Shown: in pieces, positions 50,562 to 63,272 of the stretch | How the letters are laid out: each line of letters begins with the position of its first letter | Numbering within the stretch: the first letter of the stretch is position 1 | Assembly: GCA_965261545.1 (NCBI GenBank) | Contig: CBDHDF010000002.1 | Span: forward strand, 800,001 to 864,000 | Origin: Bdellovibrionales bacterium | Lineage (GTDB): Bacteria > Bdellovibrionota > Bdellovibrionia > Bdellovibrionales > UBA1609 | DNA: 64,000 nucleotides | Direction of reading: 5' to 3' | Translations under genes and position numbers: made by a program | The notes under the pieces: generated by a model | Databases searched by the model: none | Seen by the model: only the letters and a program-made list of their open reading frames with translations | Told to the model about the DNA's origin: nothing

Positions 50562-50619
50562 TCATTTCAATAATTTATAAAATTTTTAGAATGAAAGAGC
50601 CTTTGGCATCCATCTTGCC
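50562..50619 (+). promoter_or_regulatory. Candidate sigma54 promoter with upstream IHF-like site
   Basis: TTGGCATCCATCTTGC (50603-50618); TTTCAATAATTTA (50565-50577) is one mismatch from WATCAANNNNTTR. Confidence 0.7.
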
Positions 50620-50631
50620 TTATAGAAAGGT

Positions 50632-51303
50632 ATGATGAAAAAACAAATCCAAAACAAAAAAAGAAGCAAGAAACGCCAACCCCTAAGGCTTGCCACATTC
50701 ACAGTGGTGGCCCTTTTTCTTCTCCAAGGTTGTGGACTGAGTCATGTAGATCCCGAGGAGTCCTGTAATTTTATGCAGAGCAAAGAGCAACAAAGACTCT
50801 CCTGGGGTGAGAATGTACCTGTCACAGTTCATATCCACAAAAGTGTTCCCCGAAAATTTCGCCAAGATATCATTGAGGCCATGGAGCATTGGAACCAGCA
50901 AATGGGACGAACTCTTCTTGAATTAGGTATTGAGGGTATAAATGGAGCCTCTCTTCCTAAGCGAGATGGTCACTCTATTGTCTATTGGTTAAATACTTGG
51001 GATAAAACACCCAGTGCTGAACAAGGACGAACGACAGTGTACTCCCGTGGTGCAAGAATTCACGAGGCTGATATTCGTATTAATAATAGAGATTTTGACT
51101 TTTTCTCAACAAACGACTTTTCTGAACAGGCCACTTGGTCGAAGGTCCATGTAAAAAGCCTTCTTATCCATGAGTTTGGGCACTTTCTTGGCCTTGATCA
51201 CGATGACTCCCATGGCAGTGTTATGAACAGTGGGCTTGCCAGTGGTGCCATTCGAGACCATGTAAGTTCACAGGATATCGAATCTTTAAGTTGTGAGTAT
51301 TAA
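50632..51303 (+). CDS. Matrixin-family (M10-like) metalloprotease lipoprotein
   Basis: Lipobox LQGC; HEFGHFLGLDH and Met-turn SVM. Confidence 0.92.
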   Translation: MMKKQIQNKKRSKKRQPLRLATFTVVALFLLQGCGLSHVDPEESCNFMQSKEQQRLSWGENVPVTVHIHKSVPRKFRQDIIEAMEHWNQQMGRTLLELGIEGINGASLPKRDGHSIVYWLNTWDKTPSAEQGRTTVYSRGARIHEADIRINNRDFDFFSTNDFSEQATWSKVHVKSLLIHEFGHFLGLDHDDSHGSVMNSGLASGAIRDHVSSQDIESLSCEY

Positions 51304-51564
51304 AAATAAAGAACTTGTGGACTCCTCCCCCCACAACCACGTGCGTTTTACATGAACTTTCTTCAATATGCTGACTAATTTTTAACAACCTAAAAAATTA
51401 AGTTTATGGATCCAAATAAGTGAGCTTATTCAATGCCTTAGGTCAATGCACTGCTGCAAAAGTTCATGGGAGTTCAAAAAGCTCTTAAAATTTTACAATG
51501 CACAGCCTCAAGGAGCTTTTAAAAAGAGATGAAATCAAAATAAAAAGTATTTGAGAAGATTATG

Positions 51565-51581
51565 TTGGCACGAGACTTGCT
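51565..51581 (+). promoter_or_regulatory. sigma54 promoter (consensus match)
   Basis: TTGGCACGAGACTTGCT = TGGCACG-N4-TTGCW. Confidence 0.85.
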
Positions 51582-51591
51582 ATTATACTTT

Positions 51592-51650
51592 AAACATTCC
51601 CCCCTTGGCGGCCTGGTTCCCCTCCTTTATTCCAGGCCGTCATTTTTTTT
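51592..51650 (+). ncRNA. Candidate sigma54-dependent small RNA with anti-SD loop
   Basis: Lies between the sigma54 promoter and an intrinsic terminator; no ORF; C-rich tracts UUCCCCCCUU and UUCCCCUCCUUUAUU. Confidence 0.65.
51606..51650 (+). terminator. Rho-independent terminator
   Basis: 11-bp stem TGGCGGCCTGG/CCAGGCCGTCA (one G-U), 15-nt loop, then T8. Confidence 0.85.
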
Positions 51651-51737
51651 CTCCCACGGATTTAGATCGGATTTAGCTTTTGGAAAGTCCCAATCTGGCC
51701 TAGGGTTCCAACCTCAATTGAACTAAAATAGTTAGAT

Positions 51738-52541
51738 ATGCCGTACCTATCGTACCTCAACTGCTCTTTTTACCTCTTTCTTCTCTTGCTTTTCTTTCTT
51801 TTCCTCCCATCGAGTTGGGGTTATCACATATTGTTGGACCCAGGCCACGGAGGAATTGACCAGGGAACCACCCTAGGGATTTACCGCGAGTCTCAAATGA
51901 CCCTACAAGTGTCTCGGCTCCTCAAAGAAAAATTCGATCAAGACTCCGATTTCAAAGTCACATTGAGCCGCAACAAAAATGAGCTTCTATCTCTTCAAAG
52001 GCGAGTGGACCTGGCCCATAGTCAAGGGGCTGATCTCTTTGTAAGTATTCATGTGAATGCCTCCTCAGATCCACGAGTTCGAGGCAGTGAAATTTACTTC
52101 AAAAACCAGTTCACCCCCGACAAGGAAACTCTGATTCATACGGCCCATGAGCTTATAAGTTTTCAAAAAGGAAAAATAGCTCACAAAGCTTCCATGAAGA
52201 TACCTCGACAAGGAGGGTTGCAAGAGGAGGTGGTTGAAATTCTTCGGGATCTCAATAGAAACAACCACTTGTTCTTTAGTGGGGAGTTGGCAAAAGCGAT
52301 TGCCAGAAATTGGCAAGTTCCCGAAAGCTCTATGCGTGGCATTCGCCAGGCTCCTTTTTTTGTTGTCAGCCATGCTCATATGCCATCTATTCTTATCGAA
52401 CTTGGCTTTATCACCCACAAAAGAGAGGCTCAGCTTCTCCAGCAACGAGAGTATCAGATTCAAATTGCCCATTCTATTTACAAGGGAATTAAGGAATATA
52501 AAAAATCTATTAGACAAAATCATTATCGGCCCTTAGACTAA
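51738..52541 (+). CDS. Exported N-acetylmuramoyl-L-alanine amidase (Amidase_3, AmiA/C-like)
   Basis: Signal peptide; LLDPGHGG.D.G, E, FVSIHVNA, RQAPFFV, MPSILIELGF. Confidence 0.92.
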   Translation: MPYLSYLNCSFYLFLLLLFFLFLPSSWGYHILLDPGHGGIDQGTTLGIYRESQMTLQVSRLLKEKFDQDSDFKVTLSRNKNELLSLQRRVDLAHSQGADLFVSIHVNASSDPRVRGSEIYFKNQFTPDKETLIHTAHELISFQKGKIAHKASMKIPRQGGLQEEVVEILRDLNRNNHLFFSGELAKAIARNWQVPESSMRGIRQAPFFVVSHAHMPSILIELGFITHKREAQLLQQREYQIQIAHSIYKGIKEYKKSIRQNHYRPLD

Positions 52542-54003: not shown

Positions 54004-54014
54004 CGTAACATTCA
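54004..54014. repeat. 11-bp direct repeat, left copy
   Basis: CGTAACATTCA, identical to 56128-56138; contains the stop codon of the DUF285 gene. Confidence 0.85.
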
Positions 54015-55940
54015 CTGGCCTGGACCTCCATCGGTAATGCTCCAACCTTTACCTCTTAAGCTTGTACGAGCGGTGACCCCACTGGCATCGTATTTTAATG
54101 TGCCCATATTCATATTCTTGTCGCTTGCACTGGGTGTCCTTCTGTCAAATTCTATTAGAAATTTTGAATAATTTGTAGCAGACAACCCTGATAATAGAAA
54201 CATCTGATTTACAGAAGAATTTGCGCGCCTAAAGTCCCATCCACTTGTGTTTGGATTTGCTCTCCCGGCACGATAAAACATCTTGAACATACTCTCAACT
54301 CTGGATGTATCCCAACCACTGACGTCTGGGTTGGCACTTGTGGCATCCTCAAACATAGTTCTCATATCTGTGACATTAGAAGTATTCCAATTACTTGTGT
54401 TTGGGGTTGCCCTTGTGGCACCATCAAACATAGTTCTCATATCTGTGACACGAGAGGTATTCCAATTACTTGTGTTTGGGTTTGCACTTGTGGCATCCTC
54501 AAACATACCTCTCATATCTGTGACACTAGAAGTATCCCAACCACTTGTGTCTGGGTTTGCACTTGTGGCATCCTTAAACATACCGCTCATATCTGTGACA
54601 TTAGAAGTATCCCAACCGCTTGTGTTTGGGTTGGCATTGGTGGTGCGAGAAAATATCCATCGCATACTCGAAACTTTGGATGTATCCCAACCACTTGTGT
54701 CTGGGTTGGCATTGTTGGCATGATCAAACATACCTCTCATATCTGTGACGTTAGAAGTATCCCAACCACTTGTGTCTGGGTTGACCCTGGAAGCATTACT
54801 AAATAGGTTATACATAGTTGTAACATTGGATGTATTTCCACCAAAGACATTTAAGAGAAAACGATTCTCTTTAAAAGCTTCAGAGAGGATTTCCCACCCC
54901 ATATTTCCTAGGTTGAGTACCTCAAGCAGACGGTTTCGTGTGGAGTCTGAGGCGTTTGTAAATCCTTCGCATATGCCTTGGATCTTGACTGTATATGTTC
55001 CAGCGCTTTGATAGGTATGCACTTTGTCTGAATCATCAAAAGATGTGACCTCACTGGAACTGCTTCCATCACCCCAATCCACAGTAAAATTATATATTAA
55101 TGACGAATTTCTTCTAAGAGGTATAGTGAATTGAAAGTTATCTGGAAATTTCCACTTTGTCACAAAAATATTAATATTATTATCTACGGAGGAAGTGACT
55201 GTCTTGCCTTCACTTTGACTTGCTTTGATGGCAGTAGGATGAGATGATACATCTTCGACATTAAAAACTCCTAAAAATGTATTTCTTGAATCACAAGGTA
55301 AATCTTTTTCCACATTTGGCTTTCCAATAACGATTGTAACATTTCCAAGGCTTGATTTACAAGTTCCACTTATAATATATTGATTCATATTGGTGGAAGA
55401 AAGTGGAAGCAATGAGGATAATTCTAGTGCATCAGGGAAGATGATATTATTTGCAACAGTGGTACTTGTTTTTTCATTTTCATGGGTAACTCTGATGGTA
55501 GCTTCTTTTGAAATTACCTTTCTTGCGTCGGTAGTTCCTGTAAAGACATTGGAGTTACAAGGCACTTCTACGGAAGTTGTTTTAGGTGTTTCAATGACTA
55601 TGGATACGCTTTCGTTTGTATTTGAATTGCAAGTTCCACTTACCGTATAGGTTTCTGCATTGGATGAAGAAATAGGTGGCAATGATGCATTGATACCCAA
55701 TGTGGGAGTTTGAGAAGTACTTCTAGGAGTGTTCTCAGAAGTACTTCCAGGAGTGTTCTCAGAGGCATTTCCAGGAGTGTTCTCAGGAGGATCTACGGGA
55801 ATCTCAATGGAGGGTTGAACAAACTTCTTTGATTGTTTTTTACTAGAGCGACTCTTGCAACCTACACCCACAAATACAACCAAAGATAAACTGAGTAGAA
55901 AGTAAAAATAATTATCTTTATATTTCATATTTTTTTTCAT
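54012..55940 (-). CDS. DUF285/BspA-type repeat surface lipoprotein with Ig-like and PKD-like domains
   Basis: Lipobox GVGC; FVTKW..VDWGDG..HTY..AGTYTV; 25-aa repeats NPDTSGWDTSNVTDM.GMF; RBS AGGAAGG. Confidence 0.9.
   Translation of the reverse strand: MKKNMKYKDNYFYFLLSLSLVVFVGVGCKSRSSKKQSKKFVQPSIEIPVDPPENTPGNASENTPGSTSENTPRSTSQTPTLGINASLPPISSSNAETYTVSGTCNSNTNESVSIVIETPKTTSVEVPCNSNVFTGTTDARKVISKEATIRVTHENEKTSTTVANNIIFPDALELSSLLPLSSTNMNQYIISGTCKSSLGNVTIVIGKPNVEKDLPCDSRNTFLGVFNVEDVSSHPTAIKASQSEGKTVTSSVDNNINIFVTKWKFPDNFQFTIPLRRNSSLIYNFTVDWGDGSSSSEVTSFDDSDKVHTYQSAGTYTVKIQGICEGFTNASDSTRNRLLEVLNLGNMGWEILSEAFKENRFLLNVFGGNTSNVTTMYNLFSNASRVNPDTSGWDTSNVTDMRGMFDHANNANPDTSGWDTSKVSSMRWIFSRTTNANPNTSGWDTSNVTDMSGMFKDATSANPDTSGWDTSSVTDMRGMFEDATSANPNTSNWNTSRVTDMRTMFDGATRATPNTSNWNTSNVTDMRTMFEDATSANPDVSGWDTSRVESMFKMFYRAGRANPNTSGWDFRRANSSVNQMFLLSGLSATNYSKFLIEFDRRTPSASDKNMNMGTLKYDASGVTARTSLRGKGWSITDGGPGQ
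54231..54782 (-). repeat. 75-nt (25-aa) intragenic repeats, seven full plus one partial
   Basis: TATCCCAACC-type anchors recur every 75 nt (e.g. 54533, 54608, 54683, 54758). Confidence 0.92.
55712..55787 (-). repeat. 24-nt (8-aa, ENTPGxxS) tandem repeat, about three copies
   Basis: AGGAGTGTTCTCAG recurs at 24-nt spacing. Confidence 0.85.
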
Positions 55941-63215: not shown

Positions 63216-63272
63216 TCATTTCAATAAATTATAATTTTCTCCCAAAGTTTTTTTGTTGGCACTGACTTTGCT
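63216..63272 (+). promoter_or_regulatory. Candidate sigma54 promoter with upstream IHF-like site
   Basis: TTGGCACTGACTTTGCT (63256-63272); TTTCAATAAATTA (63219-63231). Confidence 0.75.

Follow-up and report, generated by a model that had tools for sequence, protein, structure and literature searches.

We describe here what is very probably an uncatalogued gene for a regulatory RNA of about 55–60 bases, kept across the predatory Bdellovibrionales, including Bdellovibrio bacteriovorus, and encountered in a 64-kb stretch of DNA (hereafter the window) from a bacterium of this order. At the level of sequence, its promoter, the promoter spacing and its C-tracts are conserved, its stem covaries, and the unit is independent of the neighbouring gene; transcription, pairing, repression and the identity of the targets are what we infer. 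The explanation that we favour, and consider probable, is that of an Hfq-independent, trans-acting small RNA (sRNA) of Bdellovibrionales that is activated through sigma-54 and pairs with G-run ribosome-binding sites to block the initiation of translation. In such a scheme, a sigma-54 activator would switch on a transcript of 55–60 nt ending at its own intrinsic terminator, which would leave two C-tracts single-stranded: the first precedes the stem on its 5′ side, and the second occupies the oversized loop of the terminator. Without Hfq, both would pair with ribosome-binding sites that contain G-runs, in some mRNAs but not all, and so block translation initiation, a dksA/traR-family mRNA being the best candidate. 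The order-wide RNA is new, whereas its kind, a C-rich sRNA pairing with ribosome-binding sites, is already known. The element and its surroundings in the window are as follows.

50632-51303, plus strand: gene for a matrixin-family (M10) peptidase (PF00413), upstream of the element
51431-51501, plus strand: three CAATGC repeats (starts at 51431, 51444 and 51496), without support as a conserved activator site
51565-51581, plus strand: sigma-54 (-24/-12) promoter, TTGGCACGAGACTTGCT, a consensus match that is invariant in alignment A1
51592-51650, plus strand: predicted small RNA of 59 nt, its +1 placed from the -12 box
51597-51605, plus strand: 5′ C-tract, unpaired in the fold, candidate seed 1 (C6 at 51599-51604), near-invariant in alignments A1 and A2
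51606-51642, plus strand: terminator stem of 11 bp (arms 51606-51616 and 51632-51642) around a long loop
51617-51631, plus strand: C-rich loop of 15 nt, UUCCCCUCCUUUAUU, candidate seed 2 (CCUCCUU at 51621-51627)
51643-51650, plus strand: T8 of the intrinsic terminator, kept in alignments A1 and A2
51738-52541, plus strand: Amidase_3 gene, downstream, followed by rph and a Ham1 gene (PF01520, PF01138, PF01725)

The original prediction had placed a sigma-54 box at 51565-51581 with a start near 51592, an 11-bp stem with a 15-nt loop and a T8 run to 51650, a transcript of about 59 nt without an ORF, and a second C-tract ahead of the stem, and all of these features lie where they were claimed to be. 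Matches to the strict sigma-54 consensus number two in the 64-kb window against 0.06 expected; the other box, at 63256-63272, has an activator gene about 7 kb away on its contig. The predicted fold of 51592-51651 consists of one hairpin of -21 kcal/mol (z = -6.3), with none of 200 shuffles equally stable. No AUG occurs in the 59-nt predicted transcript of the window. A small-protein gene was considered and rejected, AUG being found in 19 of 53 transcripts of the family, mostly at the base of the stem and in 17 cases within the first 16 nt. The expectation that the RNA belongs to no named family likewise held, for in covariance-model searches of Rfam 15 with the window region and five homologous loci the best matches (15–25 bits) were all far under the gathering score, and Pxr, ar14, CcsR and 6C appeared in none of the match lists at E values of up to 5–10. 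We found no description of this RNA in the literature searched, mostly freely available papers, whose supplements may list it.

The relatives of this bacterium share a conserved promoter and loop with a covarying stem, as the original prediction would require. The unit is present at 18 of 29 amidase loci of relatives. An RNA model built from 20 copies matched 105 of the 141 genomes of the order and a broader model built from 46 copies matched 118, both counts including the training sequences and related genomes that are not independent of one another. Among 46 diverse homologs, 95% of the stem cells are paired and nine of ten pairs show two-sided changes (three of ten in the closer 20-sequence set). 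Covariation of the 46-sequence stem exceeds all slid controls and all 500 shuffles (0/500 as high), but kin sequences can beat shuffles, so it is the pair counts that carry the weight. A promoter-blind scan of named genomes, whose pattern comprised a C-tract, a stem and TTT and left the promoter and the loop sequence unspecified, returned at least 118 loci, of which 80 were analysed (the matches listed: by record title, 62 from Bdellovibrionales or close to them, B. bacteriovorus Bd5 included, and 18 others); they come in part from genomes already covered by the RNA models and do not amount to an additional sample. A -24/-12 box stands 13–21 nt 5′ of the C-tract in 59 of the 62 Bdellovibrionales-type loci and in none of the 18 others among the matches listed. 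The predicted +1 is a purine in 98 of 122 homologs, and the predicted lengths run from 50 to 68 nt with a median of about 55 nt.

This genome also carries a paralog (contig C7, 453,560-453,650) with the same promoter, C-tract, stem and T-tract and a loop of pure C7; a cluster of DUF-type genes lies on one side of it and a convergent gene on the other. Elsewhere, the 46-copy model finds five spaced matches in one genome (C1:1,674,515-1,678,270), and several further genomes have matches of about 120 nt, which point to a family of longer paralogs. Outside the order but within the phylum, the 20-copy model matched 1 of 119 genomes, weakly, and the 46-copy model matched 5 of 119 at E < 0.001. Each of the three extra-order loci that we viewed combines a sigma-54 box with two hairpins, whose loops are both C-rich, and a palindrome lies upstream, clearly so at two of the loci. 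The short form may therefore have lost the first stem of a two-hairpin ancestor while retaining its C-tract. In the phylum of a Desulfovibrio record, there were eight weak matches in 121 genomes, and at seven of the nine loci inspected a sigma-54 box occurs together with hairpins rich in pyrimidines; their stems are different, and as such we treat these matches as analogs.

The hairpin might instead be an ordinary terminator of the upstream gene that happens to stand beside an unused sigma-54-like box. The matrixin gene does lie upstream on the same strand in this window, and the transcript from the sigma-54 box is a prediction. However, the promoter spacing is fixed at the 59 of 62 listed loci noted above, the upstream gene varies (in Bdellovibrio it points away), activator-like palindromes are conserved upstream, and a 15-nt poly-C loop is not needed for termination, all of which render this account very improbable. 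Among the other loci listed, none has a matrixin match, and the gene is not a conserved neighbour. The matrixin gene has a sigma-54-like box of its own at about 50602-50619, and just past its stop, at 51315-51336, is a small, weak hairpin (z -0.4; loop ACUCCUCCCC on the plus strand) that reads as a terminator on the minus strand. Further along the window, the minus strand of 54012-55940 encodes a 642-aa protein with many 25-residue repeats of surface-protein type, and a related gene occurs near the sRNA paralog.

A second possibility, that of a cis element in which the hairpin serves the amidase operon downstream as its 5′ leader or attenuator, with regulated read-through of the terminator, draws on the arrangement of the downstream genes. 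Among the matches listed, the amidase lies in tandem on the same strand at 44 of 62 loci, is divergent at 7 (including Bdellovibrio) and was not seen at 11, some of these being on short contigs. No sigma-70-like promoter was found in 51250-51800, which would also accord with a leader, as would a 941-nt contig of an RNA library that starts inside the hairpin and runs into the downstream gene, although this contig may be DNA. Against this, the unit cannot simply be an amidase leader because the amidase is divergent at those seven listed loci, and the paralog is followed by a convergent gene. The single hairpin, moreover, dominates the predicted ensemble (79%), with no antiterminator appearing upon extension to 146 nt. 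For B. bacteriovorus HD100, the start-site table of PMC3627812 (supplement file 3) gives as the upstream sequence of Bd2697 what is the unit's 3′ half, and Bd2697 has its own mapped start at 2,619,972, 30 nt past the T-tract. From this promoter entry, we derive a position of about 2,620,000-2,620,060 on the minus strand for the HD100 element. We regard the leader as improbable. The original reading of a stand-alone, non-coding, single-hairpin RNA gene with exposed C-rich segments, predicted to be driven by sigma-54, is thus supported by sequence and by conservation.

The character of the exposed loop requires some revision, however. It had been described as displaying the anti-Shine-Dalgarno (anti-SD) sequence CCUCCUU, and in this genome it does, with a 7-nt anti-SD identity to the genome's own 16S tail (...AUCACCUCCUUU). 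As a conserved feature the motif does not stand: among the 62 Bdellovibrionales-type loci listed, the loop contains CCCC in 62, CCCCC in 61, CCUCC in 27 and CCUCCU in only 12, with a mean length of 15.7 nt and a C content of 61%. What is conserved is therefore poly-C, whereas the exact anti-SD belongs to this lineage. On the sequence evidence, poly-C suits G-run sites, and the 5′ C-tract is conserved equally with the loop. These observations bear on a further alternative, the strongest form of the original reading, in which the RNA would act as a general anti-SD, competing with the 16S tail and so damping translation across many mRNAs. The 7-nt match is in its favour, and 920 of 3697 start regions pair with the loop of the window's RNA at <= -12 kcal/mol as compared with 300 coding controls, yet such an enrichment at start regions is expected of any anti-SD string. 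With the motif rare among the listed homologs, and with a paralog in the same genome whose loop is pure C7, there is very little likelihood of a general anti-SD role.

With regard to activation, the three CAATGC repeats had been proposed as a site for an enhancer-binding protein. The repeats are indeed present, but their conservation is not borne out, since CAATGC occurs in only 7 of 122 homologous upstream regions and its threefold occurrence is matched by 21 of 200 shuffles of the 3-kb locus, i.e. at chance level. A different element recurs upstream of the family, a TGTC-N9-GACA palindrome that (with one mismatch allowed) is found in 52 of the 122 upstream regions as compared with 9.5 in shuffles. 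In shape it resembles the TGT-N11-ACA sites of NtrC-type activators. Between -95 and -45, loci of the Bdellovibrio sequence type carry it in 30 of 44 cases and those of the window's type in 6 of 63, and it is absent upstream of the window's RNA. In 40 related loci, its positions peak at -46, -57, -67/-68, -78/-79 and -90, about 11 bp apart; this helical phasing is suggestive only (p 0.07 on 14 distinct positions). For the window's sequence type, we found no conserved activator site, the top words being TATCGGC and CTCAAAT. TATCGGC is enriched upstream of the 63 loci of this type and CTCAAAT clusters at -40 to -30. The former is the reverse complement of GCCGATA, a motif that occurs in FliA-type promoters according to PMC3627812, and thus suggests a divergent sigma-28 promoter.

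The machinery for sigma-54 control is widely present, with an rpoN domain in 136 of the 141 genomes of the order. This genome encodes 18 strong sigma-54 activator domains, the nearest about 18 kb from the RNA, and no one of the 18 candidates is singled out. In five named genomes, searches for the palindrome combined with a sigma-54 box found 23 and 21 matches, and the controls 4 and 9. The downstream proteins (32 scanned of 38 extracted) included 20 without a family and 8 hydrolases, the latter comprising four lytic transglycosylases (one below the cut-off), a subtilase, a phospholipase D, an S1/P1 nuclease and an alpha/beta hydrolase. In Bdellovibrio, a sigma-54 box with an upstream TGT-N11-ACA palindrome precedes many hydrolases and apparently secreted proteins, possibly an undescribed regulon. 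The same palindrome lies 95–98 nt before the start of divergent DacB-type peptidase genes at three of six loci, and of one of seven canonical ones; the sigma-54 boxes upstream of these DacB-type genes are degenerate and fall short of the consensus.

If the C-tracts do pair with G-run ribosome-binding sites, genes carrying such sites should be sought among the targets. Sites of the form G6-ATG number 117 in five named genomes as compared with 35 in the reversed control, and most but not all were inspected, as 101 distinct sites. Recurring at these 101 sites are a dksA/traR-family gene (PF01258; three genomes and this one), a gamma-glutamylcyclotransferase (four genomes) and a subtilase (two genomes and this one). 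The dksA start carries a G-run of at least 4 at 33 of the 40 top loci, some of the misses being wrong start calls, and at eight of eight from other families; rph has such a run at 0 of 91 starts, and the background of this genome is 280 of 2526. Under a single rule applied to all families, dksA-like genes have a G-run of at least 4 in 75 of 88 cases (a count that includes the discovery genomes and paralogs) as compared with 0–20% in eight control families. Two further dksA paralogs have G-runs in 8 of 10 cases, and in Bdellovibrio G-run ribosome-binding sites occur on all three dksA/traR paralogs. By its near-collinear position with Bd5, the dksA-family gene corresponds to Bd3519, whose transcript falls on exit from the attack phase, as reported in PMC2797640.

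Other results complicate the assignment. Covariation between the seeds and the dksA site gave no advantage to cognate combinations across 51 genome pairs (p 0.06 for the 5′ tract and 0.98 for the loop). Of 12 genomes that the 20-copy model does not match, 11 keep the dksA G-run, as do 6 of the 7 that the 46-copy model leaves unmatched too, and beyond the order the run is found at 6 of 19 loci. The dksA site of this genome ranks 80th of 2526 for the loop and 237th for the 5′ tract, and 11th for the loop of the paralog. Poly-C seeds fit hundreds of mRNAs, and single-genome ranking, dominated as it is by insertion-sequence copies and trivial SD matches, does not discriminate. The insertion-sequence copies of this genome, near-identical and numbering in the dozens, are spread over many contigs and include a 454-aa ORF whose ribosome-binding site has a G5 run. 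As such, we regard the dksA/traR-family mRNA as a lead, the best candidate target that the sequences suggest. A third strong terminator of this genome lies at about 983,070-983,150 on the minus strand of contig C10; its loop is CCCCCC, and UUCCUCCUUU immediately precedes it on the 5′ side. It stands where a gene that has a sigma-54 box ends at its 3′ side, possibly giving a C-rich RNA derived from a 3′ UTR, and the gene convergent to it is a subtilase with a G6 ribosome-binding site.

No Hfq was found in any of 41 genomes, and ProQ was not found in this genome, which does encode a KhpA/B-type protein. These facts lend some weight to an alternative in which a real sigma-54 sRNA acts mainly through protein, as a decoy or sponge for a binder of C-rich RNA (a KH-domain protein or Rho), with the stem as the recognition element. 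The stem sequence GCGRYCWGG/CCWGGYCGY is kept across families, beyond what a terminator needs, and pairing alone does not explain this; further, the tracts are homopolymeric and not matched to the SD, and there is no covariation with dksA, the best target. On the other hand, two exposed C-tracts are a known signature of RNAs that pair with ribosome-binding sites (PMC4615179 and PMC6486639), and a class of G-run ribosome-binding sites exists in these genomes. The conserved stem could itself be explained by the precedent of Pxr, whose last-stem segment at the terminator is conserved and needed for accumulation, according to PMC5684412. We consider an action mainly through protein to be unlikely.

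Transcript data carry no weight either way. Of 24 RNA runs, mostly metagenomic, four were compared with the B. bacteriovorus Bd5 locus: one gave flat, DNA-like contigs, two gave scattered pieces and one gave no reads. A transcript of about 55 nt is of a size that standard RNA-seq could miss. The RNA is not listed among the eight attack-phase sRNAs of PMC3627812.

Returning to the pairing sRNA that we favour, it is possible to place it within a larger, more speculative picture of the switch from attack to growth. One sigma-54 activator that binds TGTC-N9-GACA would turn on both secreted prey-digesting enzymes and the RNA, and the RNA would silence the stringent-response factors of the DksA family through their G-run ribosome-binding sites, thereby releasing growth in the prey. 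As a poly-C regulator of minimal size, spread over the order, the RNA would descend from a two-hairpin ancestor still found elsewhere in the phylum. That every part of this picture holds together is doubtful. Bdellovibrio is a model predator, and within the literature surveyed none of its sRNAs has a shown target. Here, an RNA is kept order-wide in an Hfq-less lineage, with a defined position in HD100, a testable activator site and a testable target in dksA. If the RNA does repress DksA, sigma-54 signalling would be tied to the starvation-to-growth switch of the predatory cycle.

Several known systems invite comparison. The predicted control by sigma-54 is shared with Qrr, GlmY and the RpoN-dependent CJnc230 (FlmE) of Campylobacter, but neither the sequence nor the structure of the RNA is like theirs. 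Of these three, Qrr depends on Hfq, GlmY acts as a decoy for protein, and CJnc230 arises by cleavage of an mRNA. The RNAs reported from Bdellovibrio itself (APsRNA1-7, merRNA and a 261-nt sRNA of the hit locus) come from the same organism but have other coordinates and measure 98–655 nt. With the cuckoo RNAs of Alphaproteobacteria (RSs0680/CcsR and C14/NfeR1), the common feature is a C-rich, anti-SD-like motif in a hairpin loop. Those of the cuckoo/ar14 type (PMC4615179) have two to four adjacent hairpins, all of which carry CCUCCUCCC on stems that vary; their control is of the RpoH type, and Hfq is bound by RSs0680a. The RNA described here differs in having one hairpin, poly-C, a conserved stem sequence and predicted sigma-54 control in another phylum; the alphaproteobacterial host of cuckoo/ar14 RNAs is not shared either, the promoter-bearing matches among those listed being Bdellovibrionales-type.

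The closest resemblances are of another sort. Pxr of Myxococcus xanthus (activator PxrR/Nla19) likewise has a predicted sigma-54 promoter with an enhancer region in an Hfq-less host and, to judge from the probe and primer sequences in PMC5568312, a C-rich segment like that of the window's RNA. In M. xanthus, Pxr binds near SD regions, as a TRIC-seq preprint indicates (10.1101/2025.09.11.675593). Pxr is, however, 108 nt long, with three stem-loops and long and short forms, as compared with 50–68 nt and one hairpin here, and it lies downstream of its NtrC-like activator gene (pxrR/nla19), whereas the window's RNA lies downstream of matrixin with no adjacent activator gene. In the 6C RNA of Actinobacteria, single-stranded C runs pair with mRNAs without a chaperone, according to PMC6486639, as is proposed here, although 6C has several C-loops (L2, L3) and high-GC Gram-positive hosts and the window's RNA has no Rfam match. 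While the RNA thus lacks the features that define Pxr and the cuckoo family, by analogy it would work most like Pxr and 6C.
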